This document shows positions 1 through 15,542 of a stretch of DNA of 15,542 nucleotides, in pieces. How positions within the stretch are numbered: the stretch's first letter is position 1; every line of letters starts with the position of its first letter. The notes under the pieces were generated by a model. That model did not search any database. It saw only the letters and a program-made list of their open reading frames with translations, and was not told the DNA's origin. Origin of the DNA: Candidatus Micrarchaeia archaeon (lineage in GTDB: Archaea > Micrarchaeota > Micrarchaeia > CABMEP01); NCBI GenBank assembly GCA_038886535.1, contig JAVZXS010000011.1, forward strand, positions 1-15,542. Direction: 5' to 3'. A program made the translations under genes and the position numbers.

Positions 1-57
1 GCGCTTTAGTTCATTAATTTCTTCGCTAGATATTTGTTTGCTCAGCACAAGAATCAT
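1..57 (-). CDS. 5' end (first 19 codons) of probable 3-deoxy-7-phosphoheptulonate (DAHP) synthase, type I-beta with N-terminal ferredoxin-like/ACT regulatory domain; runs off the window edge
   Basis: ATG at 57, GGAGG SD at 71-67 (9-nt spacer). Translation MILVLSKQISSEEINELKR resembles the 'MIVVLK...EEI' start of regulated I-beta DAHP synthases, and it lies directly behind an aromatic amino acid leader/attenuator. Only 19 aa are visible. Confidence 0.6.
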   Translation of the reverse strand, partial: MILVLSKQISSEEINELKR

Positions 58-72
58 AATCTATAACCTCCC

Positions 73-106
73 AAATAAAAAACCCCGAGAGATTATCTCG
101 GGGTTT
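73..106 (-). terminator. Rho-independent terminator (attenuator terminator, segments E:F)
   Basis: Minus strand reads AAACCCCGAGA-TAATC-TCTCGGGGTTT followed by TTTATTT: a perfect 11-bp inverted repeat (106-96 / 90-80) with a U-tract, just upstream of the downstream gene's SD. Confidence 0.92.
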
Positions 107-168
107 ATGGTTATTAGCTTCCCACCCCGGGGGATTGCTTCCACCCGGGGCTTGTGCTTATCTAGGCA

Positions 169-270
169 CTAAGGGCCCTCGGGTGGCTTTCTAAAAAAGA
201 AAAAGAAGCCATACCAAGAGCCCTTTACGTCAAACATCTTGCATACTCGATGAGTTACGTCTGACCTCAT
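169..270 (-). CDS. Leader peptide, 33 aa: MRSDVTHRVCKMFDVKGSWYGFFFFFRKPPEGP (alternative start at ATG 237 gives 22 aa)
   Basis: Open frame from ATG 270 to TAG 169, read directly. Codons TGG TAT GGC TTC TTT TTC TTT TTT at 216-193. It lies between the tRNA and the terminator. Too short for the supplied ORF track. Confidence 0.85.
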   Translation of the reverse strand: MRSDVTHRVCKMFDVKGSWYGFFFFFRKPPEGP

Positions 271-308
271 AATCTATCTTTTAAACTCCCAAAATCACTC
301 TTTATGAA

Positions 309-386
309 TGGTCGGGACGGGCGGATTTGAACCGCCGACCCCTAGCTCCCCATGCTAGTGCGCTAACCAGGCTGCGCCACGCCCCG
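309..386 (-). tRNA. tRNA-Pro (anticodon GGG), CCA encoded
   Basis: Minus strand CGGGGCGTGGCGCAGCCTGGTTAGCGCACTAGCATGGGGAGCTAGGGGTCGGCGGTTCAAATCCGCCCGTCCCGACCA: acceptor stem, D arm, anticodon stem CTAGC/GCTAG with loop ATGGGGA, T-loop TTCAAAT, 3' CCA. Confidence 0.97.
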
Positions 387-418
387 ATTCATCTTGTTCT
401 TCCTACAAGTGCCTTTTT

Positions 419-446
419 ATTACAGGAAAACATCCTACACTGTCAA
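419..446 (-). promoter_or_regulatory. Candidate sigma70 promoter for tRNA-Pro (and possibly the leader and downstream gene)
   Basis: Perfect TTGACA at 446-441, 16-nt spacer, TGTAAT at 424-419; about 30 nt upstream of the tRNA 5' end. Confidence 0.55.
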
Positions 447-474
447 GAGGACGCTTGCATTTCGATATAATTTC

Positions 475-504
475 TTCAAAAATGATGTTGACTCATGATA
501 TAAT
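475..504 (+). promoter_or_regulatory. Candidate extended -10 promoter for the pelEFGAB transcript
   Basis: TG-A-TATAAT at 496-504 (perfect extended -10), with TTCAAA at 475-480. A second TATAAT lies at 466-471. This supports a pelE start at 545 rather than 455. Confidence 0.5.
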
Positions 505-544
505 AGAAATTTGTAACCAAGTTCATAAGAAGCTGGGTTCAATT

Positions 545-1588
545 ATGCTGAGTAAAGCATTATATTATTCTTTATTAGCAGAGCTTCTGTCACTGATAAA
601 TCTCATTTACTTGGTGACAGTTTATCAAATAGCATTAATTCTTCTTCTTCATTTCGTAGCCTGCTTGTTAGTCTCTCTTTTTCTTTTAAATCTGTTACCT
701 GCAAGATACAGAAAAGAAAAGTTTAAGGCAATCGGCGTTCTTACGCTGACGGGATTTCTGCTCTATGCACTTGGGTACGCCTTTGTGTTTATTCTTAGCA
801 TATACTTACTAAGAAAACAAAAGGAGGTAGAAAAAAAAGAAATAAATACCCTTTCCATGAAGGAAATCTTTACAGAAAGAGTCATTTCAAAGGGGCCTAT
901 TTTTGGTGAAGCTCCTCTTTTTTTTATAAACAATCCGGAAAAATCTAGCTCTGCTTTAGTGGATAAGTTATCGCTAATACTTCTGGAATCAAAGGATCCT
1001 AAAGTTATAGGTACAGCTTCTAAGGCTATAAGTAGCAGTCACGACGATCTAAGATTGTCTGCCTCTTCTGCCCTTTCCAAGCTGGAAAGGTCGATTCAGG
1101 AAAAGATAAGGGAACTTAGCGAGACTCTGGAAAAAAAACATTTGGAACAGAACACAAGAGCTATGGCATTGTTTGACCTTGCTAAATGCTACTATGATCT
1201 GGTTTATTTTAGGCTTGTTAGCGATGAATTAAAAAATTATGTTCTTCAAAAGGCAGAAAAGTGTATCTTACAGGCTTTAAGTTCGGTTAAGCTACCGGAA
1301 TTTTACATTCTTCTCGGCAAAATAAATCTCGCAAAGAAAAACTATGACATGGCAGAAGAATGCTTTTTAACCGCAATAGACTGTATCAAAAGAGACAACA
1401 AATTTAAGGAGGTGCCACCTCTAAGGTATGCTCCCTATTTGATGGAAGTCTATTTCGAGAAGAGAGATTTCAATCGTGTAAAAAAACTACTTATGGAAAA
1501 TACTACTTACATAAAATACTCAATAAATCCCCATCTTAAATTCCTGGCGGAATTTTGGGGGGTGGCGGATGAAGGTTCTAGTGGATAA
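545..1588 (+). CDS. pelE: Pel polysaccharide biosynthesis protein PelE (N-terminal TM helices, HEAT/TPR-like C-terminus)
   Basis: Hydrophobic N-terminal helices, 'FGEA' and 'DDLRLSASSALSKLE' (PelE-like DDEVRLxAY motif), TPR-like helices, 'PYLMEVYF', terminal 'FW'. Overlaps pelF. ATG 545 is preferred over the track's TTG 455 because promoter-like elements lie in 455-504. Confidence 0.82.
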   Translation: MLSKALYYSLLAELLSLINLIYLVTVYQIALILLLHFVACLLVSLFLLNLLPARYRKEKFKAIGVLTLTGFLLYALGYAFVFILSIYLLRKQKEVEKKEINTLSMKEIFTERVISKGPIFGEAPLFFINNPEKSSSALVDKLSLILLESKDPKVIGTASKAISSSHDDLRLSASSALSKLERSIQEKIRELSETLEKKHLEQNTRAMALFDLAKCYYDLVYFRLVSDELKNYVLQKAEKCILQALSSVKLPEFYILLGKINLAKKNYDMAEECFLTAIDCIKRDNKFKEVPPLRYAPYLMEVYFEKRDFNRVKKLLMENTTYIKYSINPHLKFLAEFWGVADEGSSG

Positions 1589-3089
1589 ACACCATAAGGT
1601 GGAAATTCTTCTAATAGCTGAGGGCACATATCCCTATGTAAGAGGAGGAGTGGCCAGCTGGATACATGAGTTGATAGGAGGGTTACCGGAATTTAAATTC
1701 GGTCTTATCTTCCTTGGGGGAAGAAAGGAGGATTACGGAGATATAAGGTATGAGTTGCCTGAAAATCTAGTTTATTTGGGTGTAGCCTACCTTTTCGAGG
1801 ATCGAAAAAGGCCGAGTCCTAGGTATATAAGTAAGAAAAAGAAAGCTTTTGACATAATTGAAAAAATTCACTGGGATTTTAAAAGGGGTTCTGAGAGAAT
1901 AGTAGACGAGGTATTAAACCCTAATTTTTTCATTAACACAATCAAATATGAAGATTTTCTATATCATAAACAATCCTGGGAACATATCGTTAGCATGTAC
2001 ACCCGCTATGCACCCGAAGAACCTTTTGTAGATTATTTCTGGAATATAAGAAATCTTCATGCACCTCTTTGGGTAGTTAGTAAAATAGCTTCTAATGTAT
2101 GTGATTTTGGGCTTGTTCACAGCCCCTCTACTGGCTACGGTGGTCTTTTAGCCTCCATGTTGAAAACAAGTAGAAAAAAGCCCTTTATACTTACGGAACA
2201 CGGTATATACACTAGGGAGAGAAAAATAGATCTTTTCAATGCAGACTGGTTGGCTGATACGAGATCTTTTATTAACAAAAGACTTGGTGAATTATCCCAT
2301 AATAGAACTATCTGGATAAATTTTTTCTTTCATATAGGCAAAGCGATCTATTCAAAGGCGGATCTAATTATCTCCTTATTTGAAGATGCAAGGAAAATCC
2401 AGATAAGCTACGGAGCAGAACCTGAAAAATGCCAGGTTTTACCTAACGGTGTAGAAATAAAAGTCTATGAAGAAGCTCTAAATAAGCGTCCGGAGTTTGT
2501 ACCGAAGGTAATCGGTTTGATAGGCAGAGTTGTGTCCATAAAGGATATAAAAACCTTCATCAAGGCTATGAAAATACTCATTGAAAAAGTTCCCGATGCT
2601 CAAGGATGGATAGTGGGTCCCACGGATGAAGAACCCAACTACTACGAAGAATGCCTCGAATTAGTAAGAGCCTTAGGGCTAGAAAAAAATGTAATTTTTC
2701 TAGGCTTTCGAAAAGTTAGTGATATTCTTCCAAGTATTGGGGTACTGACTCTGACCTCCATAAGCGAAGGCATGCCCCTTGTGGTGCTAGAAGGATTTGC
2801 CGCGGGCGTACCCTGCGTCAGCACCGATGTGGGATCCTGCAGGCAACTAATATACGGCGGGCTTAACGAAGAAGATATAGCCTTGGGTAAAGCTGGTGAA
2901 GTAACACCTATAGCAGATGTGGATGCTCTTGCAGAATCTTACGCAAAACTCCTTACCGATCAAGAGCTCTGGAAAGGCTATCAAAAGACCGCCCTCGAAA
3001 GAGTAAAAAAATTTTACTCAATGGAAATGTTTCTGGAAAATTACAGAAAAATCTATAAAAGGTTTTTATATGGCAGGAATCTCTCTTGA
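1569..3089 (+). CDS. pelF: GT4 family glycosyltransferase PelF (Pel synthase)
   Basis: N-terminal EGTYPYVRGGVASW, HSPSTGYGG, LTEHGIYTRER, GRVVSIKDIKTFI and the GT4 motif SISEGMPLVVLE; 506 aa; located between pelE and pelG. Confidence 0.96.
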   Translation: MKVLVDKHHKVEILLIAEGTYPYVRGGVASWIHELIGGLPEFKFGLIFLGGRKEDYGDIRYELPENLVYLGVAYLFEDRKRPSPRYISKKKKAFDIIEKIHWDFKRGSERIVDEVLNPNFFINTIKYEDFLYHKQSWEHIVSMYTRYAPEEPFVDYFWNIRNLHAPLWVVSKIASNVCDFGLVHSPSTGYGGLLASMLKTSRKKPFILTEHGIYTRERKIDLFNADWLADTRSFINKRLGELSHNRTIWINFFFHIGKAIYSKADLIISLFEDARKIQISYGAEPEKCQVLPNGVEIKVYEEALNKRPEFVPKVIGLIGRVVSIKDIKTFIKAMKILIEKVPDAQGWIVGPTDEEPNYYEECLELVRALGLEKNVIFLGFRKVSDILPSIGVLTLTSISEGMPLVVLEGFAAGVPCVSTDVGSCRQLIYGGLNEEDIALGKAGEVTPIADVDALAESYAKLLTDQELWKGYQKTALERVKKFYSMEMFLENYRKIYKRFLYGRNLS

Positions 3090-4443
3090 ACTAAAAAAGA
3101 TGTTTAAGAAGAAGAGCTTACTTTCTATTTTTACAGCCTTTGGTTACTCCTTTGCGCTTAGTTCTGGGCCTTATTTTATAACAATTCTTTCCTTAATTTT
3201 AGTAAATTTTCTTGCTGTTGATGGTGCTATTAAAGACTCTAAAGAACTTGTTCAGTTTCAGGTGTCTGTTACTTACATAATAGCTTTTAGCCTTATTCTA
3301 AATGGATTTACAAACCTTTATCTGATAAGATTTTTAGCAGATAGGGCCTTCGAAAAAAAGTATGAAGCTATCGTGCCAAATATATTCGGTGCTATATCCA
3401 TAAATATGTCTGTCGGATTCATAATTTCTCTTCCTTTCGCCATGTTTTTTATCGCACCTTATGCCAGCTATTACTATGCTCTTTCCTTTGCCTTTTGCTT
3501 TACTGTTTTTATGGGCATATGGACGGTTAATACTATCCTTACAGGATTTAAGAATTACAAATATATACTGTTTTCCTTTGTTTTTAGTTACGGAATTTTT
3601 ATTCCTCTTTCCTATATTTTATTCAGTAAAGGCCTAACGGGTTTGATGTTTGCCTTCACTCTTTCTAATATTTTGTTATTTACTTTTCTCATATCCTATC
3701 TCGTAGTCAACTACTATTCTCACAGTATAATTAGTTTTGACTTTATAAAAGAGAAAAAGTACAGGAGCCTTATTTTTACCGGTTTTTTTTATAATCTCGG
3801 GTTGTGGGCAGATAAACTGGTTTTCTGGTTCAATCCCTATACCAATACCCCAGCTCTAGGACCTCTAAAATACTCAGTAGTCTATGACATACCTATATTT
3901 CTAGCTTACCTTTCTATGGCTCCAGGCATTTCCGGTATGTTTCTTAAAGTAGAGTGGGAGTTTTCGTATTACTACGAAAGATATTATAACGCTATCAGAT
4001 CAGGTGCGGTTCTGGAAAAAATATACCTGTATGGTGATGAGCTTATAAATTCTGCAAGGAATGTAATAGTAGATGTTTTAAGAATACAGGCTATATTTGT
4101 AATATTTATTCTTATCACCCAAAAGTTAATTTTTCAACTCTTCAAGCTCTCAAAGGTTTATATACCTCTTTTTGATATACTTCTCATAGGAACTTCTATG
4201 CAAGTGTCTCTGTTAAGTGTTCTAGCTCTCATTTTCTACATCAACCGATTAAAGGACGCTCTTGTAGTAACAGGCTTTTTTGCGTTTACGAACCTGGTTT
4301 TCAGTTTCATAAGTATTTACTTAGGGCCTTACTTTTATGGGTATGGTTTTAACCTATCCGTTATACTAACTTCATTACTGGGAATAATATGCTTGAGGAG
4401 AATTCTTCATGAAATTCATTATTGGACTTTTATGCACATTTAG
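3070..4443 (+). CDS. pelG: Pel exopolysaccharide transporter PelG (MOP/MATE-like polytopic membrane protein)
   Basis: Starts MAGISLELKK (PelG MAGIGFELRK motif); contains SSGP, RFLADRAF, YNLGLWADK, YDIPIFLAYLS and GPYFYGYGF; about 12 hydrophobic segments; 457 aa. Confidence 0.95.
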   Translation: MAGISLELKKMFKKKSLLSIFTAFGYSFALSSGPYFITILSLILVNFLAVDGAIKDSKELVQFQVSVTYIIAFSLILNGFTNLYLIRFLADRAFEKKYEAIVPNIFGAISINMSVGFIISLPFAMFFIAPYASYYYALSFAFCFTVFMGIWTVNTILTGFKNYKYILFSFVFSYGIFIPLSYILFSKGLTGLMFAFTLSNILLFTFLISYLVVNYYSHSIISFDFIKEKKYRSLIFTGFFYNLGLWADKLVFWFNPYTNTPALGPLKYSVVYDIPIFLAYLSMAPGISGMFLKVEWEFSYYYERYYNAIRSGAVLEKIYLYGDELINSARNVIVDVLRIQAIFVIFILITQKLIFQLFKLSKVYIPLFDILLIGTSMQVSLLSVLALIFYINRLKDALVVTGFFAFTNLVFSFISIYLGPYFYGYGFNLSVILTSLLGIICLRRILHEIHYWTFMHI

Positions 4444-5236
4444 TATTGTTAGTTTTTCGTGGGCAAGGGACATTTCCGTAGGGTTCCTTATTTACGGTGA
4501 TCCCTTACCCAAAAAGGCTTTGTATGTGTTTGATTGGCTGATAGTCAATCCGGATAGCCTTCATATAGATGGGTTACGTTATAGAGCCATAAAACCAAAG
4601 TTGATAGCTTATGTAAGCATCGGCGAGGTAGAACCATACAGAGAATACTTCAAAGATTTGAAAAAAGAGTGGATTTTAGGAGATAACATAACCTGGAAAT
4701 CCAAGATAGTGGATATAAGGCAGGATGATTATGTGGAATTTCTTCTAAAAAAAGTATTCTCAAAACTAGATCAATTCGATGGATTCTTTCTTGATACGTT
4801 GGACAGTTATCAAAACTTCCTAGAAAGTCCGGAGAATAGAAAACCGGCAGAAGATAATCTTGTAAGACTTATAAAGACCCTTAGGTCAAAATATCCCGAT
4901 AAGATCATTCTTATAAATCGTGGTTTTGAGATTGTAGAAAGAGTCAGCAGTGAAGTAAACGGCCTTGTTGCCGAGAGTCTTTTCTACGGCCTTAAGCTCG
5001 GGGAAGAAATAGACTACAGAAAAATGAATAGAGAGGAGACTGAATGGCTTCTCGGTAAACTTAATCATGCAAAGAACCTCGGTCTTAAGGTTATAGTTGT
5101 GGATTATGTGCCACCGAACAATAGAAAACTTCAGTTAGAAACTGCAAGGAAGATATACAAACTTGGCTTCATACCATATGTTTCAGACAGGTATCTCAGA
5201 ACTTTAGGTGTATCTACATATAATTTAAGCCGTTAA
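4409..5236 (+). CDS. pelA: PelA glycoside hydrolase domain only (endo-alpha-1,4-polygalactosaminidase-like, GH114/GH166 type), with signal peptide; deacetylase module absent
   Basis: Signal peptide MKFIIGLLCTFSIVSFSWA; motifs AYVSIGE, GFFLDTLDSY, INRGFE, VAES, VVDYV and GFIPYV. It ends at 275 aa, right after the TIM-barrel, whereas canonical PelA is about 900 aa. Confidence 0.88.
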   Translation: MKFIIGLLCTFSIVSFSWARDISVGFLIYGDPLPKKALYVFDWLIVNPDSLHIDGLRYRAIKPKLIAYVSIGEVEPYREYFKDLKKEWILGDNITWKSKIVDIRQDDYVEFLLKKVFSKLDQFDGFFLDTLDSYQNFLESPENRKPAEDNLVRLIKTLRSKYPDKIILINRGFEIVERVSSEVNGLVAESLFYGLKLGEEIDYRKMNREETEWLLGKLNHAKNLGLKVIVVDYVPPNNRKLQLETARKIYKLGFIPYVSDRYLRTLGVSTYNLSR

Positions 5237-5274
5237 AGAAAAAGAATACGTTAAAGTGAACCTGGCTTGTAAGT

Positions 5275-6312
5275 ATGAGAGAGTGGAAACCTGTTGTTCG
5301 TGGTAAATTTTTTAGTATAAAGGAACTGCTAGCTTCAATTTTTCTATTTCTGTGTATCTCTATTATTCTCTTTCCCAAAGATAAGCTAGAAGAATATCTC
5401 TTTACAGAAGAAAAGACAAATTTGGAATTATATATAACTTATATGAAAAACATATCCAGAATAAAAAATGATCCTGTCCTTAGGCTATTTCTTGCAAACA
5501 CGCTTATACAGGCCGGTAGATTGACTGAAGCACAAGAAATAGGCTTCGACCTTATAAACTCTTCTCATAAAGACGAAGCCTATCTTGTTCTTTTCAGGGT
5601 AGAAAAATTCAAACACTTCTCCGAAAAAGAAAATAACCATAGATTGATGGAAGATTATCTTATTAAAGCCATTGAAGCCACTAATAGAAAAGATATTGTG
5701 GTGGAAATATACAAAGAAGCGATTAGCATGAATCTGACCACAGCTGTTATGTTGTCCTCAGATAAACTGTACAGAATGGAGGGAGATCCTAAGTGGCTTG
5801 AAGAAGCTTACAACTATGCAATAGCTAGAGGGGATTTCAGATCCGGCATTATCTACGCATCTGAGCTGTGCAATAGAAATCCTGAAAAGAAAACTTCATA
5901 TATTAACGATATAGTTTACATGATAAAAAATCATAAAGACAATGAAGAACTTCTTGAAATCCTCAGAGTAAACATAGATGAAAAAACCTATAAGAATGTT
6001 CTTTCTCAGTTAACGACATCTGAAGAGATTTCGGTAAGTGCAGTCTCCGAAAAAAGCTTGAAGGAATATATAGAAATTTTTAAAAACACGAAAAATATGA
6101 GTGAGAGAAAACATCTTTTTGAAAAAATAGTGGGAATATATTTGACCCAGGGGCAGCATCAGGATCTTAAAGAGTTTCTCTTGAGATACCATGCGGAATT
6201 CGTAAAAGATAAAGTTCTTGCGGTCTTTATGCTAAAAGCATCTCTTGCTACGGGAGACACTCAATTTGCTCGAACTATAGCCGTTAGTATAAAGGAGGCT
6301 AATCTAAAATGA
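5275..6312 (+). CDS. PelB N-terminal-like TPR protein with N-terminal membrane anchor (first part of a split PelB)
   Basis: Hydrophobic segment LLASIFLFLCISIILFP, then 'LYITYMKNI..DPVLRLFLANTLIQAGRLTEA', resembling the first TPRs of PelB. All-helical composition; lies between pelA and the PelB barrel gene with an ATGA overlap. Confidence 0.65.
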   Translation: MREWKPVVRGKFFSIKELLASIFLFLCISIILFPKDKLEEYLFTEEKTNLELYITYMKNISRIKNDPVLRLFLANTLIQAGRLTEAQEIGFDLINSSHKDEAYLVLFRVEKFKHFSEKENNHRLMEDYLIKAIEATNRKDIVVEIYKEAISMNLTTAVMLSSDKLYRMEGDPKWLEEAYNYAIARGDFRSGIIYASELCNRNPEKKTSYINDIVYMIKNHKDNEELLEILRVNIDEKTYKNVLSQLTTSEEISVSAVSEKSLKEYIEIFKNTKNMSERKHLFEKIVGIYLTQGQHQDLKEFLLRYHAEFVKDKVLAVFMLKASLATGDTQFARTIAVSIKEANLK

Positions 6313-9059
6313 ATCGGCTACTTTCCCTTTTCATTTTTTTTCTTGTGCTATTCCCCGCTCCTTTATGCTCAGATCCATATCAAAAAGAACAAGATCTTAA
6401 TAGAGAGCTTTTGACTACTCTTATGTCAACCTTCCTTCAGGCTAACGATCTTGATAACGCTTTAGACATAGCTAGAAAAGGTGTAAAATTATATCCAAAA
6501 GAGTCATTTTGGTGGGAATGGTATAAAAAGATAGCTTTGTGGCTTGGCAAAACAGAGGAAGCCTGCTTAGCACAGTTGAAACTTGCGGAACTCCAAAAAT
6601 CTAAGGATAGCATTAAAGAGGCCTTCAGCCTTGCTATCTCAGCAAAACGCTTTGACATTGCTATAAATCTCATATCAAATTACCCATGGCTTAATAAGGA
6701 ATTAAAAAAAGAGGATTTGTTGTACATATATTCAGAGGCTGGAAAAATAAACGATTTCATAAATCTTATGGAGAACCTTTATAGAAAAGAGAAAAAGGCC
6801 GATTATCTTTATTATTTAGCCCGAGCTTACTTTATGGATGGTAGGTACGGTGAGGCTGCCGAATATATGAATAGATTAGAAAAAAGCAAACGATTAAATC
6901 TTGAAGAAACGATGTTTTATTCAGATATACTTTTCCTAAATAATAAGGTTTTGGAAAGTTATCTTATATTGAAAAAATACTTTGATAAATTCGATCTCTC
7001 AAAAGAAATTCCTCCAAAACTTTACTGCAAAAAACTTTCTTATCTCGCATGGATATTAAAAGACCTGGAAACCGCTGCAAGATCTGCAGAATTACTCGAC
7101 AGCATGGGCGAAGCTGAGGAGGATGATTATGTAAGAATATATGCTTATCATTTTTCTATGAAAGATTATAAAAAAGCTGTAGATTACGTAAGCAAGGGTT
7201 ACCGAAAGTCTAACAGCGAGTATTTATTTACTTTATGGGTTGAAGGACTGATAGCTCTTAAGGATTTTAATAAAGCCGAGCAACTCTTCACGCTCATAGA
7301 TAGGAACGATCTCTTATCTAGTCCATATCTTTTGGGTGTATATTCTAGAACCCTGTATAAAATGAAAAAGGCAGAGGAGGCAAGAAAGGCGCTATTAGAG
7401 GCTCTAAGGATAAAATTTTCAGTAAAGACCCTATCCGTTGCATTACACATGGCCGTTGGTTTTTCCGACAAGGTATTAGCTGGTATTCTAAAAAAAGACT
7501 ACGGTAATTATGAAAAGATTCTCCCGAGAGAATTTACTCTCTTATATCTCATGATGCAGGACTCGCAAAGAGCTACTGTGTTAATAAGCACTCTTCGGGA
7601 AAAGGACAGGGATGATCTTCTAGTATATGCGCAGGCTATTGATATGCTTGGAAGAACGGAGGAGGCAAGAAGCGTAAGATTCAAGGTTTTGAGAGAACTC
7701 TATAACGATGTGGAACTGTTCGAGGACAAGGAGAAATTAAGGCTTTTCTTAATAAGCGGTATCGGGATGTTACCTTCTAGCGAGTTATCAAAAGGTATGA
7801 AAATAGGCAATAGATTGCTTCAAGAAGAGCTCTGGCTTGATATTTACCTAACTCACCTGCTTGCAGAGGGACACTACGAAAAAATTGAACGTATGGAAAA
7901 GTTTGAAAAAATCGAACTCAAACCATGGATGGAACTTAGCCTTGCTCTTAGAAATAATGACAGAGAATATATTAGGAAATTGCTTGAGGATAAGGAGGAA
8001 ATACTCCCTTATAGAGATGTCACTGAGTCTTACAGGAGATTAGGGTATCCACGGAAGGCTATAGAACATGCCTATAAGAGTATGGAGAAAAACCCGGAAG
8101 ATACTTTGCTTTATGAACAGTTCAGACAACTTTTTCATGACTACGGAGATTATGCTCAAATTAACGCTGGATACAAGATTCTAGATAAGACAGGATATTT
8201 TACGCTAAATCCATCGTTAAGGTTCTCTTATGGGGAGGAATGGCATGTAATTTACGGTGGTGAAGAAGGATTACTGACTTTTTTGAAAAATCCGAACTAC
8301 AGAAATTTTCCTTCCAATTACCATTATCATAAATTTAGCCTCAGAAAATACACGGACGAAGGCTATTATCAAGGGGGAGTGATTTTAGGCGACAGTCTTA
8401 GAAGTTTTTTTGGTCTAGAGCTTGATCTTTCAAAGAGAGTTTACAAAATTGATAATGCTAGTCTATCTTTATATTATAACAGGCAAGCACAAGAAACACT
8501 TTTTACTTACATCGGCGGTCTTAAGGATGGCCTTTCGCTTGGCCTATATGAGAGCTTAGGCCCAAGGATGGGCTTAGGTTCAACGCTTGAGTACGATATT
8601 TTCAAGTCTCAGGATGTCAAAACTATCGGTTCCGGTTTTAGTACGTATTCAGAAATCTTTTACAAACTTAGGTTTGCCTATCCAGACTACACCTTGAGAC
8701 TTTATACTTCTTTTGGTGTTTATAGTGAAAAAGAGGGAAGCAAAGGGGTATTAGGAAAGTTAACCAGTTTCGAAGACTTCAAAATTCTTCCGGAAGATAG
8801 CTTCACAATTGGAACGGGTTTTAACTTCGGAACAGGCGTGAAGGAAATGATAAGCAGAACTCTTTCTCCCTTTTTTACATTAGACTTTTATTATAATACC
8901 GTTTCTAATTTTTGTTATGGCTTCTCATTAGGTATTTCTGGAAAACTTATGGGAAAAGATCGGCTTTCAATAGGACTTAAACGACTGTCCAACTTTCAAA
9001 TAACGGGAGGATCTTATTGGGAAGCATACGTAGAATATAGATTATTTTACTTACACTGA
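6309..9059 (+). CDS. pelB: PelB TPR plus C-terminal outer-membrane beta-barrel export protein, with its own signal peptide
   Basis: AAGGAGG SD at 6292-6298; signal peptide MNRLLSLFIFFLVLFPAPLCS; TPR array (FLQANDLDNALDIARKGVKLYP..WW); 'LKPWMELSLAL..ND'; Gly/aromatic-rich beta strands including YKLRFAYPDYTLR; ends YVEYRLFYLH. Confidence 0.88.
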   Translation: MNRLLSLFIFFLVLFPAPLCSDPYQKEQDLNRELLTTLMSTFLQANDLDNALDIARKGVKLYPKESFWWEWYKKIALWLGKTEEACLAQLKLAELQKSKDSIKEAFSLAISAKRFDIAINLISNYPWLNKELKKEDLLYIYSEAGKINDFINLMENLYRKEKKADYLYYLARAYFMDGRYGEAAEYMNRLEKSKRLNLEETMFYSDILFLNNKVLESYLILKKYFDKFDLSKEIPPKLYCKKLSYLAWILKDLETAARSAELLDSMGEAEEDDYVRIYAYHFSMKDYKKAVDYVSKGYRKSNSEYLFTLWVEGLIALKDFNKAEQLFTLIDRNDLLSSPYLLGVYSRTLYKMKKAEEARKALLEALRIKFSVKTLSVALHMAVGFSDKVLAGILKKDYGNYEKILPREFTLLYLMMQDSQRATVLISTLREKDRDDLLVYAQAIDMLGRTEEARSVRFKVLRELYNDVELFEDKEKLRLFLISGIGMLPSSELSKGMKIGNRLLQEELWLDIYLTHLLAEGHYEKIERMEKFEKIELKPWMELSLALRNNDREYIRKLLEDKEEILPYRDVTESYRRLGYPRKAIEHAYKSMEKNPEDTLLYEQFRQLFHDYGDYAQINAGYKILDKTGYFTLNPSLRFSYGEEWHVIYGGEEGLLTFLKNPNYRNFPSNYHYHKFSLRKYTDEGYYQGGVILGDSLRSFFGLELDLSKRVYKIDNASLSLYYNRQAQETLFTYIGGLKDGLSLGLYESLGPRMGLGSTLEYDIFKSQDVKTIGSGFSTYSEIFYKLRFAYPDYTLRLYTSFGVYSEKEGSKGVLGKLTSFEDFKILPEDSFTIGTGFNFGTGVKEMISRTLSPFFTLDFYYNTVSNFCYGFSLGISGKLMGKDRLSIGLKRLSNFQITGGSYWEAYVEYRLFYLH

Positions 9060-9115
9060 GTTTTCCCTCCGATATTTTTGTTGCCTTTACTGGCCTTACC
9101 CTCTTTCTGGATATT

Positions 9116-10438
9116 TCAAGATATTCTTATAAGACCAAAATTTTCTATTTCAGCACATATACGATTTATATCTTCTACCTTATGGATTTGATAAAAAACC
9201 CTCAGTTGAACAAAGTCTACTCCTTTAAGCTCCTTTAACAAATTGTTCACTCGTTTTACAAACTGATATGCACCCTGGGGGTCTGTAAAAGATAGCAATA
9301 TTAGTAACTTTTGGTCCCCGTATCTATAAATTATGTCGAGTCCTCTAATATTTTCCAAAATAAAGTAATATATACTTTCATCCCATCTCCCAAAATCTAA
9401 AAGCACCAGAGACGATTCTATCCCATATTTTTTCTTTAACATTGAACACTTATTCAGTTCCTTAATGAAGTCAAAATCCAAGGTTGGAAATCTATTATTT
9501 AAGTCTCCTATAGCTTCTAAGTCTGCATAATCTTGTAATATGTAATAAAAAAGAAGCCCTATAGACAAAATATTATCGGAATTCAGGTTTAAGAATGGCA
9601 TTTTTTCTATAACAAATACGTATTTAATTTCCGAACCTAGATAAAGAGGAATTACACAGAGGTACTTAGTGGAGTAGTCATTTATTGAAGAAACAGCAAC
9701 ATAAGAAACTTCTCCCCTTTCGAATGCACAATTTACTAGTCTATCCTGCATATCGAGGGTTTCCATGCCGCCTACTTCAATTATTTCTTTGGCTTTACCT
9801 TTGGTTACTTCGTAAAGGCCGGCCTTTTCTATCGAATAGATGTTTACAACCACCATGAAGATTTCTTTTAGAGCTCTCTGTAGGTCATGCGTTTTTAATA
9901 TTTGTTTTCTTACGTCCGTAAGAAAACCTCTAATACTTATAGGTTTGCTTATATTATATTTCTCAAGTCTATCGTGGGATAATTTAGTTATGTAGAGGGC
10001 TCTACCGACGTCTCTTAACCTATCACTAAGATAGTCTGCTTTTTTTTCATATTTTTCTATTACTCTACTCCAGTAAAAATTAAACTCAGAAAGGACTAAA
10101 AGGTAAAGAAGAAGCAATAGCAAAAGAGTTCCTGTAAATTTGGAATATACGATGTATAAGGTCATTGCAAAAATAACCAAGTATAAAACACCTGCAAAAA
10201 AACCGTAAAAAAGGCTTAACACCGCCACAGGAAATATATGGAAGGCTAGGCCATACTTGTTCTCAAGAAGTAAAGGATCAGATCTATCTATGGCGAAACC
10301 GAAAACATATACTACACCAATAAGTATAAAGATCTCAACAATCACCAATTTAATATTGGTTTGTTCATATTTGGGAAGTTCTTTATCGGGTTGTGCCTGT
10401 TTTAATCTAGTTCTAAGTACCTTAATTAGAGAAAGCAT
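9116..10438 (-). CDS. pelD: PelD, c-di-GMP receptor (TM helices, GAF-like domain, degenerate GGDEF domain)
   Basis: N-terminal TM helices with 'DPLLL' and 'FYGFFAG'; 'KLSHDRLE....KPISIR' juxtamembrane motif; I-site RxxD (RGLD at 9346-9335) with no GGDEF signature; overlaps pelC. Confidence 0.92.
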   Translation of the reverse strand: MLSLIKVLRTRLKQAQPDKELPKYEQTNIKLVIVEIFILIGVVYVFGFAIDRSDPLLLENKYGLAFHIFPVAVLSLFYGFFAGVLYLVIFAMTLYIVYSKFTGTLLLLLLLYLLVLSEFNFYWSRVIEKYEKKADYLSDRLRDVGRALYITKLSHDRLEKYNISKPISIRGFLTDVRKQILKTHDLQRALKEIFMVVVNIYSIEKAGLYEVTKGKAKEIIEVGGMETLDMQDRLVNCAFERGEVSYVAVSSINDYSTKYLCVIPLYLGSEIKYVFVIEKMPFLNLNSDNILSIGLLFYYILQDYADLEAIGDLNNRFPTLDFDFIKELNKCSMLKKKYGIESSLVLLDFGRWDESIYYFILENIRGLDIIYRYGDQKLLILLSFTDPQGAYQFVKRVNNLLKELKGVDFVQLRVFYQIHKVEDINRICAEIENFGLIRIS

Positions 10439-10934
10439 TAACCTGTTTTAAGAGTGAAGCTAGTATTTTTTGAGTCAGAATAGAAACAGACTGATAATGC
10501 CACCCACTCATAGAACCCGTAGCTGTATAGATTAAGTCACCGGTTTTCAAATCGTAGATCCTAAGGGTTATACTAGCTACCGGCTCGCCATCTATACCCG
10601 CTTTATATCTGAACTCGTTAACCGAACCTGTTACGACGTATCGAGCACCCTTGTCTGCAAGTTTTTTCATGAATTCCTGAATTTCTTTTTGAGTATATTC
10701 CTTATCCTCGATATATACAAGATCCTTTTTGAGGTTATATCCCATAGAAGAAACCACACCCTCCGCTATAGATGATACCCGCAATCCAGCAAGAGGAGTT
10801 TCTGTATAATTTTCAAAAGGTAACACAACAATAACCGGTCCCGAAGTAGCCGGCTTCTTCTGGACGTTTAACACACCTGAAGAACAAGATAACAGCAAGA
10901 ATAAAGTTCCAAAAAACCACAAATATTTCCTCAT
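10422..10934 (-). CDS. pelC: PelC outer-membrane lipoprotein
   Basis: Lipobox LLSC; motifs LPFENYTETPLAG, YVVTGSVNEFRYKAGIDGEPVASITL and GSMSGW; 170 aa; directly upstream of pelD. Confidence 0.93.
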   Translation of the reverse strand: MRKYLWFFGTLFLLLSCSSGVLNVQKKPATSGPVIVVLPFENYTETPLAGLRVSSIAEGVVSSMGYNLKKDLVYIEDKEYTQKEIQEFMKKLADKGARYVVTGSVNEFRYKAGIDGEPVASITLRIYDLKTGDLIYTATGSMSGWHYQSVSILTQKILASLLKQVNAFSN

Positions 10935-11205
10935 ATATTACCTTTGTTAAGCAGAAAAAAGCCATTAAATAAAAAATTTGAAAATCAAATAGAAATAAAA
11001 ACTATCGTATAAACCGTGTCAAGCGAAAAACGATACATCCAGGTTAAGACCTGTAGCTACCGAAAACAACATAACCAAGGTGACCCCAACCCCTTAAGTT
11101 GCGCAATTCATAAGCACTTTCTATGGTGGACCGACTGTTGTATAAATCTAATGAAGACCTTAAGAAGAACCAGCGTATGGCGTTTTGCATTGTTTAAGGA
11201 AACTT

Positions 11206-12231
11206 ATGCATATCGTAGGAATTAAACCCATATACGGCGGTAGCCTGCCTGTAATGGAATACACTTTAGAAGCCTTGCATCAATTGGGACATAGAGTAAC
11301 TGCAATAGATTTTTCGTCGTATTTACCTATGCTCCATTACATCAGGACAACAAACGACGAAAAGGCTACCATCTTATTAAAAGAGAAGACCACAAAGATA
11401 ATCATTGAAACCCTCGAAATAATGCAACCGGATGTTCTCTTCGGCATTGCGCAAGCTCCTATCTTTAGACCGGTTCTTCGTTTTTGCAAGAGACATAATA
11501 TAGTGAGTGTGTTCTGGTTTGTGGAAGACTTTCGGAGATTTACCTACTGGAAGGATATAGCCGGTCTGTATGATTTTTTCTTTGTTATACAGAAATCACC
11601 CTTTACGGACATAGTAAGAAAACTTTGCCCCCGATCCTTTTACCTTCCTCTAGCAGCTGAGCCATCAGTTCATCGTCCTCTTAACCTATCAGAAAAGGAA
11701 AGAAGAGAATATGGATCATCTGTTTCTTTTGTAGGAGCGGGTTATCCAAATCGAGTTGCTCTTTTTGAAAAACTCGAGCTGGAGGATTTTAAAATATGGG
11801 GTTCCGACTGGAATCTTTCGAGGAATTCCGGTCTTCATAAGTTTCTGCAAAGAAACGGGGCAAGAATTGACGTTAAAGAATATGTTAAAATTTTTAATGC
11901 CTCTCCTGTAAATCTCAATCTCCATTCTTCTCTTAACCCGGATGAGATGGGAAGCGGAGATTTCGTAAATCCTCGAACCTTTGAAATTGCGGCATGTAGG
12001 GCCTTTCAGATCGTTGACTACAGAACTCTTTTAGGCGAACTATTCGAAGAAGGCGAAGAAATCATTGTGTGTAGAACAATTTACGAAATGAAACGGGCAA
12101 TACGAAAGGCGCTTGAAGATCCGGAATGGAGGATGGATGTAGCTCAGAAAGGTTATAGAAGAGTGCTTAGAGAACACACATACCTTCATAGGATGAAAAC
12201 TCTACTGGAAATTTTGGAGAGAAACGCTTAA
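11206..12231 (+). CDS. CgeB-family glycosyltransferase (Glyco_trans_1_2-type)
   Basis: Motifs PIYGGSLP, FWFVED, YLPLAA, SFVGAGYPNR, NLNLHSS, NPRTFEIAAC and EHTYLHRM. Start placed at ATG 11206 (AAGGA SD at 11196-11200) rather than TTG 11185. Confidence 0.85.
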   Translation: MHIVGIKPIYGGSLPVMEYTLEALHQLGHRVTAIDFSSYLPMLHYIRTTNDEKATILLKEKTTKIIIETLEIMQPDVLFGIAQAPIFRPVLRFCKRHNIVSVFWFVEDFRRFTYWKDIAGLYDFFFVIQKSPFTDIVRKLCPRSFYLPLAAEPSVHRPLNLSEKERREYGSSVSFVGAGYPNRVALFEKLELEDFKIWGSDWNLSRNSGLHKFLQRNGARIDVKEYVKIFNASPVNLNLHSSLNPDEMGSGDFVNPRTFEIAACRAFQIVDYRTLLGELFEEGEEIIVCRTIYEMKRAIRKALEDPEWRMDVAQKGYRRVLREHTYLHRMKTLLEILERNA

Positions 12232-13853
12232 TGGGGGATATAAAAATTTCCTGTTGCATGATAGTAAAAAACGAGGAACCCCATATTGAAGGCTGCCTTC
12301 GTAGCGTTTTAGACGAAGTTGACGAAATCATTGTGGTTGATACGGGCTCTAGCGATAGAACACTTGAAATAGCTTCAAAATTTATACCCAAGGTTCGGAT
12401 ATTTCACTTTAGATGGAACGATGATTTCTCTGCGGCAAGAAATTTTTCTCTCGATAAAGCCGAAGGAAGCTGGATACTTTATATAGACGCCGATGAACGT
12501 TTGAACACTCTTGGAAAAAGAAATATTCTAAGAGAGCTTTCCCTTCATGGTGGAGCCGATGCATATTACGTTGGGATTCGAAGCTTTCACCTAGAAGGAG
12601 AAATTGTTTCAGGATCTTTCGACTGGGCAACAAGATTTTTTAGGCGATTTCCGGACATAGAGTTTACAGGAACGATTCATGAAAGCGTTGAACCCTTTTT
12701 AATTAAGAGGGGAGCCCTTATCCAGCGTGCCCCTTTTATCATAGACCATTTCGGTTATATCTCCCGAGGAGACTCATGGCGATTAAAGATAGAGAGAAAT
12801 TTCAAACTTGCTCTAAAGCACATCAAGAAAAACCCGAAAGATCCATACATTCTTTACCACCTTGCCCTGGCAGCATATCAACTGGGAAAATGGAAGTTTG
12901 CCTATCATATAATTGAAAAAGCATACGAAATCATTAGCTCTTCTGAAGAAAGCCGGAAAAACAAACTAGCCCTCATCTGTTTTATTCTGAATCTTAAGGC
13001 AAAACTTCTGCTGGATCAGGGAAAATATACCGAAGCTATTGAAACGGCCGATAAATCCCTTGAACTCGTTTCGGCTCAAAAAAGTGCCCGGCTTTTAAAA
13101 GCCTTATCTTACATAAACCAGAAGCAATGGAGCGAAGCAATTCCACTGCTTGAAGAAGCCCTCGATTTCGTTCTCCGAGAAGGAGATCCCTTTTTAAATC
13201 CTTCCGTATTAAGTATGGAATTTTCCGTCTCGCTTTCGATGCTAAAAAAGCTTCTTGCGTCTTGCTATTTGAAAACAGGCCAGCACGAAAAAGCCATCAA
13301 TTCACTTGGCGGTAGTGACACTAGCGGTTTATTGGAACTCGCATCCTTAGCTTTACAGGATGGACATATTAACGCCGCCTTTTACTGTCTCGGTCAAATC
13401 TTAAGATATGAGCATTCTGAATTGCCAGTTCATAGTATTATACCTCTCTTCCAGAATGCCCTTTCTCTAACCGATGCTTCTTCTCAGGAACTAGAAGCAA
13501 TCGATACATTCCTTTTAACCCTGGCCTCCAGAAAAGACTGGAAAGATGTTTTACTCCCCTTTCTGGACGTGCTTATCTCTCAGAACAAGACGGCATTTTT
13601 TATTAAAAATGACACCTTGCACGATATAAAGAGAACCAGGCTAGAAGTTCTCATCCATATCAGAAAAGGAAGTATAATAGATGCTATTAGAAGAAGTTTT
13701 GCCTTTATGAGATCCATTCCAAAAAGGAAAGATCTTTCGCCGGATGAAGTCGAAATAGTAAAATTACATGCGGGCCTTCTCGTTCAGTCCGGAAAAAAAC
13801 GAGAAGCAATTTTTCTTTTAAAGAGATTTAATATTTTCGGAGACGCTCAATAA
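12231..13853 (+). CDS. GT2 family glycosyltransferase with C-terminal TPR repeats
   Basis: Motifs ISCCMIVKNEE, VVDTGSSD, WNDDFSAARN, DADE, GTIHE and HFGY, followed by TPR helices; TAATG overlap with the upstream gene. Confidence 0.92.
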   Translation: MGDIKISCCMIVKNEEPHIEGCLRSVLDEVDEIIVVDTGSSDRTLEIASKFIPKVRIFHFRWNDDFSAARNFSLDKAEGSWILYIDADERLNTLGKRNILRELSLHGGADAYYVGIRSFHLEGEIVSGSFDWATRFFRRFPDIEFTGTIHESVEPFLIKRGALIQRAPFIIDHFGYISRGDSWRLKIERNFKLALKHIKKNPKDPYILYHLALAAYQLGKWKFAYHIIEKAYEIISSSEESRKNKLALICFILNLKAKLLLDQGKYTEAIETADKSLELVSAQKSARLLKALSYINQKQWSEAIPLLEEALDFVLREGDPFLNPSVLSMEFSVSLSMLKKLLASCYLKTGQHEKAINSLGGSDTSGLLELASLALQDGHINAAFYCLGQILRYEHSELPVHSIIPLFQNALSLTDASSQELEAIDTFLLTLASRKDWKDVLLPFLDVLISQNKTAFFIKNDTLHDIKRTRLEVLIHIRKGSIIDAIRRSFAFMRSIPKRKDLSPDEVEIVKLHAGLLVQSGKKREAIFLLKRFNIFGDAQ

Positions 13854-15394
13854 TGATTGTAGCCTTCAAAGTGCTTATAATCCAGTTGACCCGTATGGGT
13901 GACATTATACAGACTCTTCCTCTTATTAAGAGACTTAGAGAAGAAATCCCCAAGGTTTACATAACCTTTTTATGCGTTGACCGTTTTGCAGAAATTCTTA
14001 CGGCTACTCCCATGATCAATCGATACATAAAAATCACGCCGCAGGAAGCTCTGAAAATAAAGAACATGGACGCAAGCTCTCTTTACGCCGTTCTTGAACA
14101 TCCCTTTCTAAAGGAACATTATGACCTGGTAATAAATCTTACTCACGATCTTTCTTCGGCAATCATTTCTGGCCGGATCAAAGCCACCGAAAGAACCGGG
14201 GCAGTAGCAGAAGACAGTTCTTCGCCCTATTTAAAACTAAAAGACAAATGGGGAAGATACCTATTTTCCTGTGTAAACAATAGGGAAGAGAATTCTTTCA
14301 ATCTTGTGGATATTCACATGGGAATGGGAAAGGTTCATCCCTGTCCTGTTTCCAACTATCTGGGAATAAACAGCAAAAACCTGGAAAGAATCGAAAGGAT
14401 ATTTTTAAAGTTTGGTATATCAAAAGAAAAACCCGTTGTAGCTCTTCACATAGGAGCAAATAAACTTCACAGAACCTGGCCTGTTGAACATTTTGCGGCT
14501 CTTTCGGAATTCTTAATAAAACATTACAACGCCCGAATAATCTTAACGGGATCCTCAGCCGAGGAACATCTTTTTAATAATTTCATATATCACGTAAACC
14601 CGGAAAGGCTAAAACACGGTCAGGTTATAAATCTCATCGGGAAAACGAGACTTCAGGATCTTATTGCCCTCATAGGAAAGTGCAGTCTCCTTGTAAGTAA
14701 CGATACGGGTCCCATCCATATTGCCGCTTCCGTAGGAACTCCCACCGTAGGAATATACACTTCCACAGCCTATCCGGGGGAAACCGCTCCCTACGGAGAA
14801 GGACATTATGTAATTCACCCCCTTATGTCATGTTACCCGTGCATTGATGAGCACTTAGGTTTTGATTGTGGTCTACCGTGCCGCTACAGCATTTTGCCCG
14901 AAAAGGTATTCGAAGTGGCTTCAGGTATTCTTGAAAATCGCCCTAAGAATTTAAAAACAGGCGAAGATGTAATGATCCTAAGATCTAGATTTCTTTCCAA
15001 CGGAACGCTTCTATACGAACCCGCTATTTCCCCGCGTGATTTTTCAGATGAAGTATTTCAAAAGTGGCTACGTAAAATAATGCTTAGGATGGTGTGGGAA
15101 GGGGTTTTAGGGCTCCCTTCAGACCCACTTCTTATTTACAGGATACCGGAAGAAGATGTAAAACGATGGATCATAAAAGCAGAGGCAATTCTTGACAGCG
15201 CATTAGATTCACTCCAATCTAACACTTTCGCAGAAACTTCCACTCTAAAGAGCTTCTCCGGCCTTTTCTTAGATTTTTCAAAGCTTTCTATTTATAGCGA
15301 TTGCTCTAATGAGATTCCCGAAACAATTTTTCTTATGAAACAAAGACTAAAAGAGATATCGTCATGGTCGAAAAGAGCCTTTCGGTTTGCATGA
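13853..15394 (+). CDS. GT9 family (heptosyltransferase-like) glycosyltransferase with C-terminal extension
   Basis: Motifs LIIQLTRMGDIIQTLP, YDLVINL, HIGA...RTWP, LLVSNDTGPIHIAASVGTPTVGI and CYPC...C..PC; TAATG overlap with the upstream gene. Confidence 0.92.
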   Translation: MIVAFKVLIIQLTRMGDIIQTLPLIKRLREEIPKVYITFLCVDRFAEILTATPMINRYIKITPQEALKIKNMDASSLYAVLEHPFLKEHYDLVINLTHDLSSAIISGRIKATERTGAVAEDSSSPYLKLKDKWGRYLFSCVNNREENSFNLVDIHMGMGKVHPCPVSNYLGINSKNLERIERIFLKFGISKEKPVVALHIGANKLHRTWPVEHFAALSEFLIKHYNARIILTGSSAEEHLFNNFIYHVNPERLKHGQVINLIGKTRLQDLIALIGKCSLLVSNDTGPIHIAASVGTPTVGIYTSTAYPGETAPYGEGHYVIHPLMSCYPCIDEHLGFDCGLPCRYSILPEKVFEVASGILENRPKNLKTGEDVMILRSRFLSNGTLLYEPAISPRDFSDEVFQKWLRKIMLRMVWEGVLGLPSDPLLIYRIPEEDVKRWIIKAEAILDSALDSLQSNTFAETSTLKSFSGLFLDFSKLSIYSDCSNEIPETIFLMKQRLKEISSWSKRAFRFA

Positions 15395-15542
15395 TTGTAA
15401 AGAACGAAGCCCATCAGCTAGAAGAGATTTTACGTCAGGTTGAACCTGTAGCAGATGAAATAGTTGTGGTCGATACGGGATCGGAAGATGATACGGTTAA
15501 AATAGCCAAGCATTATACTCCTTTTGTTTTTTTCTTTCCGTG
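15364..15542 (+). CDS. GT2 family glycosyltransferase, 5' part (runs off the window end)
   Basis: ATG 15364 gives MVEKSLSVCMIVKNEAHQLEEILRQVEPVADEIVVVDTGSEDDTVKIAKHYTPFVFFFP, a paralogue of 12231-13853. Overlaps the GT9 stop. Absent from the ORF track. Confidence 0.9.
   Translation, partial: MVEKSLSVCMIVKNEAHQLEEILRQVEPVADEIVVVDTGSEDDTVKIAKHYTPFVFFFP

Follow-up and report, generated by a model that had tools for sequence, protein, structure and literature searches.

The window analysed here is an entire contig of 15,542 nucleotides (positions 1-15,542; contig C11 of genome bin G000), and the features described first lie on its minus strand close to its left end. A leader ORF of 33 codons (270-169, minus; peptide MRSDVTHRVCKMFDVKGSWYGFFFFFRKPPEGP) contains the series Trp-Tyr-Gly-Phe-Phe-Phe-Phe-Phe at 216-193 (Trp at 216, Tyr at 213, Gly at 210, Phe at 207, 204, 201, 198 and 195). 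It is followed by an intrinsic terminator with an 11-bp stem (helix E:F, 106-96 paired with 90-80, minus; -17.8 kcal/mol), a U tract of the form U6-A-U3 (82-73, minus), a Shine-Dalgarno sequence (72-66, minus; -10.9 kcal/mol against a generic anti-SD motif, spacing 7) and the ATG of a gene at 57, of which only 19 residues are encoded before the contig ends (57-1, minus). An earlier note on this DNA had reported the minus-strand ORF with its W-Y-G-F5 run and, beyond it, alternative helices, a strong terminator and a gene start; each of these is present in the sequence, the helices as a relay fold described below. The arrangement is that of an attenuator, with a short upstream ORF holding a run of codons for the end products of a pathway, and an intrinsic terminator between that ORF and the gene to be regulated.

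The leader peptide would be translated from one of two in-frame starts. ATG270 has a Shine-Dalgarno pairing of -6.4 kcal/mol at a spacing of 14, and ATG237, which would yield a leader of 22 amino acids, one of -2.5 kcal/mol at a spacing of 7; since neither has a strong and well-spaced Shine-Dalgarno sequence, either may be the start. Seven aromatic codons in eight arose in one of 20,000 base shuffles of 308-61. Such a run occurs in nine of the 10,785 short ATG-started ORFs of the bin, the leader ORF included; being rare yet not unique, it counts only together with its context.

Directly upstream of the leader ORF, 39 nt away and on the same strand, is a gene for tRNA-Pro(GGG) (386-309, minus; ARAGORN, and Rfam RF00005 with 59.8 bits), which the earlier note leaves unmentioned. 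A terminator scan found no terminator-like site between the two, where there is a weak hairpin (312-286, -4.0 kcal/mol), and the tRNA and the leader are possibly co-transcribed. A perfect TTGACA hexamer with a weak -10 region (446-417, minus), which the scan did not report, lies 60 nt upstream of the tRNA; to judge from its sequence it may drive the tRNA and the leader together.

What the gene at 57 encodes has to be read from its 19 residues. Residues 2-19 match positions 1-18 of the profile PF18152, the ferredoxin-like domain of DAHP synthase (E 0.058), with a score of 13.7 bits against a Pfam cut-off of 27, this being the only family listed for the 19-residue query; PDB and NCBIfam searches with the same fragment gave no match. 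Long homologues of an archaeal DAHP synthase number at least 120, of which 112 are classed, by their Pfam column, as fusions of DAHP synthase with prephenate dehydratase; three scanned examples have the domain order FXD-DAHPS-PDT-ACT. The fragment is identical at 12 of 19 positions to five fusions, two of them named Desulfomonilaceae or Desulfomonile. In a comparison made up without unfused Desulfobacterota enzymes, the fragment ranked first of 818 N-termini against a profile of the 112 fusion N-termini (11.3 bits, best decoy 5.2) and third of 818 against a six-sequence archaeal profile, while its mean similarity to fused and to other N-termini was 31.2 vs 30.6 and its maxima 53 vs 42; the third rank and the all but equal means count against the assignment. 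The PF18152 match and the first rank place the gene in the pathway whose end products the leader codons specify, and favour the earlier proposal of a DAHP synthase, which the gene likely encodes, probably of type I-beta with a ferredoxin-like regulatory domain at the N-terminus. That it is an AroF-PheA (DAHP synthase-prephenate dehydratase) fusion of the Desulfobacterota is a reasonable reading of the same residues, and such a fusion would be the simpler explanation for the bias of the leader towards Phe. Searches of viral contigs for the fusion gave no locus that matched beyond its DAHP synthase half. DAHP synthase-prephenate dehydratase-ACT fusions of 620-670 amino acids form a large class in Desulfobacterota and Spirochaetota (proteins P0198-P0316), and the sources label them merely "DAHP synthase".

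The bin from which the contig comes is assigned to an archaeal phylum. Its contigs C1-C5 and C16 share a common tetranucleotide profile (distance 0.004-0.013), and the remaining small contigs are at distances of 0.02-0.045, with C11 itself at 0.030; on this scale 15-kb chunks of C1-C3 have a mean of 0.013 and a maximum of 0.026. The bin also holds three tRNA-Pro(GGG) genes, and a protein of one genome in its phylum carries the name Micrarchaeota. Because of the deviating composition, the three tRNA-Pro(GGG) genes and the archaeal phylum, the contig was probably misbinned, and we rejected the bin as a source of relatives on the same grounds. Taken as a whole, the bin appears to consist of an archaeal (Micrarchaeota) genome, represented by C1-C5 and C16, together with many small contigs of foreign origin, despite a listed contamination of only 0.25%. 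The pel genes elsewhere in the window are nearest to those of Aquificaceae (PelF relatives at 63-66%), but Aquificota were rejected as the host, as the leader or the gene start was found at none of 21 pel loci and PF18152 in none of 178 Aquificota genomes. Among named relatives, the GT9 protein of the window has its best matches in a Deltaproteobacteria MAG (57%) and in Thermodesulforhabdus norvegica (47%), and most of positions 1-1500 is present in four sequencing runs, all of them hot-spring metagenomes from a single study. We infer that the host is a hot-spring bacterium of the Desulfobacterota.

The transcript of positions 55-310 is predicted to fold far more stably than expected by chance (z = -5.3; none of 200 shuffles was equally stable). 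On the minus strand it can form, besides the terminator, a series of overlapping helices: A:B, a protector and likely pause hairpin (225-214 with 182-171 and 211-206 with 189-184; -29.0 kcal/mol); B:C, a pre-emptor (186-180 with 147-141 and 178-175 with 151-148; -26.7 kcal/mol including an inner hairpin at 169-154); C:D, an anti-antiterminator (151-144 with 131-124 and 142-140 with 134-132; -21.2 kcal/mol); and D:E, an antiterminator (129-124 with 104-99 and 123-122 with 110-109; -11.1 kcal/mol), which in the predicted fold sequesters the 5' arm of the terminator. An imperfect self-complementary repeat occurs twice, as segments C and D (151-134 and 133-114, minus), a sequence feature which suggests that the six-segment relay may have arisen through a short duplication.

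Does the position of a ribosome on the leader decide which helices form? Folding was modelled on a transcript ending at 94, so that the 3' arm of the terminator is absent; the stretch under the ribosome was left out, its footprint being taken as 9, 12 or 15 nt, and the temperatures were 37 and 60 C. With any of the codons W19-F24 in the A site, D:E formed (together with B:C) with a probability of 0.98-1.00 for all three footprints and both temperatures; this antitermination window ends after F26, F25 and F24 for the 9-, 12- and 15-nt footprints, respectively, and the control codons lie within it or at its edge. The untranslated RNA folds as A:B plus C:D with a D:E probability of 0.00, and for a ribosome located on the stop codon C:D forms, with D:E again at 0.00. 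In the transcript to 94, at least in silico, the antiterminator is thus one of two mutually exclusive structures chosen by ribosome position. Of 300 dinucleotide shuffles of 192-107, one reproduced the ribosome-dependent switch and eight gave a difference of at least 0.5, so the attenuator put forward in the earlier note gains support from the geometry of the switch. The antitermination window also opens with G17, S18 or G21 in the A site, and the geometry is accordingly not specific to aromatic codons. In the full-length RNA at equilibrium the terminator, at -17.8 kcal/mol more stable than D:E at -11.1, prevails in every ribosome state (P at least 0.997), so that antitermination must be kinetic; we infer that the D:E antiterminator is kinetically trapped. 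The 3' part of the leader has three Pro codons (P29, P30 and P33; 186-172), of which the adjacent tRNA-Pro(GGG) can read two, but proline sensing through these codons and the neighbouring tRNA was rejected since a ribosome there covers segment B and gives C:D.

The proposed mechanism is as follows. When charged tRNAs are plentiful, the ribosome would pass the aromatic run, cover segment B and stop at 171; with B covered, C:D would form and E:F would terminate transcription. A ribosome stalled on the aromatic run would cover A and leave B free, allowing B:C and then D:E to form, and with D:E in place the polymerase would read through before F can pair. Phe, with five adjacent codons, would be the main signal, and the single Trp and Tyr codons would probably be weaker inputs. 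Read-through would accordingly respond to limitation for aromatic amino acids.

How well is the element kept in nature? The comparison drew on four of ten listed runs, with the small-share runs X8-X10 left aside; of the four, X1 may be the source of the window (its contig extends about 3.65 kb past position 1) and X5, X6 and X7 come from three other studies. A contig of X5 covers 125-222 with 11 differences and one gap, and contigs of X7 cover 64-230 (10 differences, two gaps) and 120-222 (nine differences, five gaps). As neither X5 nor X7 has depth over 1-50 or 251-300, the leader RNA is better kept than its flanks. Among 40 of the 108 rows of differences, the changes at 166 and 173 turn C-G into U-G relative to the partners in the window, insertions and deletions are located in loops, linkers or G/C runs, and the only exception is a change at 188 that would break one pair of A:B. 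The loose end of the X5 contig beyond 222 (30 letters, read by hand) reads open through ten codons in the leader frame, the tenth being Tyr, and meets stops in both of the other frames. Conservation of the leader in near relatives is therefore partial. The RNA run X6 contributes a contig of 479 nt that spans 174-1 and continues further; its single change lies in the loop of the terminator. This contig fits read-through, though it gives neither strand nor level.

More distant loci were sought in several ways. None of 47 matches of a metagenome pattern scan was related, a viral pattern scan gave one match without sign of relation, and blastn of the leader gave one weak plasmid match and none in phages. 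A PF18152 gene was found in 16 of 401 genomes sampled from the archaeal phylum of the bin, and at eight of these 16 loci it is preceded by a short ORF with at least five aromatic residues in ten. Several of the eight loci are kin; their leaders have Phe and Tyr in all eight cases and Trp in six (L073 at 1308-1383, L078 at 1291-1357, L093, L094, L097, L099, L100 and L101). At L073 and L078 the leader is followed by hairpins and T tracts. Another mixed aromatic leader precedes a DAHP synthase gene on a contig of a viral collection (L079). Mixed aromatic runs thus recur at DAHP synthase genes, without homology to the leader of the window being implied.

The layout of the his operon attenuator is a relay in which A:B, C:D and E:F compete with B:C and D:E. 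The element described here resembles the Salmonella and E. coli his attenuator (RF00514) in having this six-segment relay, and differs from it in having aromatic instead of His codons; His_leader (RF00514) is also its best match among the Rfam leader families, with 28.3 bits over 160-73 against a gathering score of 49. Rfam Phe_leader, Trp_leader and T-box gave no match at E <= 10, and no leader family reached its gathering threshold. The E. coli thrL and ilvL leaders are multivalent attenuators, in which a single leader carries codons for more than one end product of the same pathway, and the present leader is like them in this respect, although the amino acids differ.

A tested leader at a DAHP synthase gene is aroR of Corynebacterium glutamicum, a Phe-Tyr-Phe leader before aroF, where transcription rises on limitation for Phe and not for Tyr (Neshat et al. 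2014, as summarised in PMC11802643; first noted by Mentz et al. 2013, PMC4046766). As that summary has it, this system shares with the window an aromatic-codon leader upstream of DAHP synthase and a rise in transcription upon stalling, and it runs counter to the view of the earlier note that leader-peptide control of this enzyme is absent from model organisms. The differences are that the aroR leader is given there as Phe-Tyr-Phe, with no mention of Trp, and as responsive to Phe but not to Tyr, whereas the window has W-Y-G-F5; going by the descriptions, the window is also set apart by belonging to another phylum and by an enzyme of type I-beta that is probably joined to prephenate dehydratase.

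Gurvich et al. (PMC3082878) predicted a pheL in Desulfobacterium autotrophicum, a member of the phylum proposed for our host. The definition in their pheL passages calls for at least five in-frame Phe codons, two of them adjacent, within 60 nt and at most 200 nt from the gene start, with a terminator and antiterminator. The window shows this pattern, with its Phe run at 207-193, its gene start at 57 and both structures present; as to the pheA expected downstream, the N-terminus is nearest to AroF-PheA fusions in a gene visible to codon 19 only. Unlike the pheL leaders as described there, that of the window places a Trp and a Tyr codon before its Phe run, does not match Rfam Phe_leader and does not end in CCC_UGA; all the same, the predicted D. 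autotrophicum pheL may be its relative. Shewanella aroF is tabulated with an 'attenuator sensing tyr-tRNA' (PMC2659441). Our literature search, which lacked most subscription journals and older attenuator surveys, yielded no publication describing a Trp+Tyr+Phe leader at a DAHP synthase gene or the element itself.

Taken together, these data make it very probable that the locus is a classical ribosome-mediated transcription attenuator with the six segments of the his operon type, acting on a DAHP synthase gene, probably a fusion, in a hot-spring member of the Desulfobacterota; that the element is a real attenuator of some kind we hold with high confidence. It works like pheL, hisL and aroR and lies outside the Rfam families: the mechanism is a textbook one, and the element is an uncatalogued variant of it.

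Within the attenuator reading the main question is which amino acids are sensed. The element could be a functional pheL of an aroF-pheA fusion that responds to Phe only, the Trp and Tyr codons being passengers kept in part because they belong to strand A of A:B. This is a sub-case of the attenuator reading and competes only with triple sensing; we give it nearly an even chance. Five Phe codons stand against one each for Trp and Tyr, a PheA fusion is likely downstream, the leader has the codons that Gurvich et al. ask of a pheL in the passages cited (PMC3082878), and aroR, according to its summary (PMC11802643), has a Tyr codon and no Tyr response. In the predicted fold the Trp codon is paired within A:B, but the Tyr codon has its first two bases in a bulge, which makes them dispensable for pairing. 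Moreover, the Trp and Tyr codons both lie inside the sensing window, and leaders of unrelated DAHP synthase genes repeatedly show mixed W/Y/F runs. The fuller proposal is a charged-tRNA sensor weighted Trp 1:Tyr 1:Phe 5, acting through a six-segment relay on a bifunctional enzyme that both opens the shikimate pathway and commits to Phe, and being one member of an uncatalogued class of DAHP synthase attenuators that spans bacterial phyla and also takes in archaea; this we put forward tentatively, as somewhat short of an even chance. In the modelled geometry, integration of Phe, Tyr and Trp is allowed and would be plausible. Granted that the element is an attenuator, Phe-only and Phe-dominant mixed sensing are about evenly matched. 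A multivalent Trp+Tyr+Phe attenuator, once measured at the point where the shikimate pathway begins, would be new, since in the one leader of a DAHP synthase gene that we found to have been tested the Tyr codon has no effect. Being short and easily moved, the element lends itself to asking cleanly whether one codon in the stall window suffices to sense its amino acid. With it, an attenuator class absent from Rfam gains a thermophilic member from the Desulfobacterota.

The hairpin at 106-73 could instead be a mere terminator of the tRNA-Pro transcript, with the ORF and helices incidental and the gene served by its own promoter. The tRNA gene is close by, reads in the same direction and is not separated from the ORF by a strong terminator, the terminator prevails at equilibrium, and short ORFs elsewhere in the bin also have aromatic runs. 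Yet the U tract and the ATG are just 15 nt apart, and as the Shine-Dalgarno sequence and its spacer take up most of this distance, a promoter would not fit in after the terminator; the tuning of the switch to the aromatic codons is matched by one of 300 shuffles; and the leader codons match the pathway of the next gene. The relatives, too, keep the leader and diverge upstream of 222-230, with no joint to a tRNA listed, and the X6 contig, from an RNA library, reaches from 174 past the gene start, strand and level being outside what contigs show. A mere tRNA terminator is accordingly very unlikely. A T-box or an antiterminator controlled by a protein rather than a ribosome is hardly credible, for although D:E has a purine-rich inner loop starting with UGG that loosely resembles the T-box antiterminator bulge, no T-box, riboswitch or other leader family was matched at the Rfam gathering score, nor a T-box even at E <= 10, and such control leaves the cognate codon run and the dependence on ribosome position unexplained.

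The probable attenuator shares the contig with a pel exopolysaccharide cluster. A pelA-like ORF (4409-5275) encodes 275 amino acids that comprise the GH114 part only, and is 39 nt from the next gene start; between the matches to these two genes, related loci carry about 1.9 kb more than the window, which seems to lack the C-terminal part of PelA. The pelC and pelD genes follow pelB on the opposite strand in the window, and in most related loci they lie ahead of pelE. The cluster as a whole (455-10934) is Aquificaceae-like and adjoins the tRNA gene on a contig that is probably from the Desulfobacterota; its acquisition by horizontal transfer is possible.
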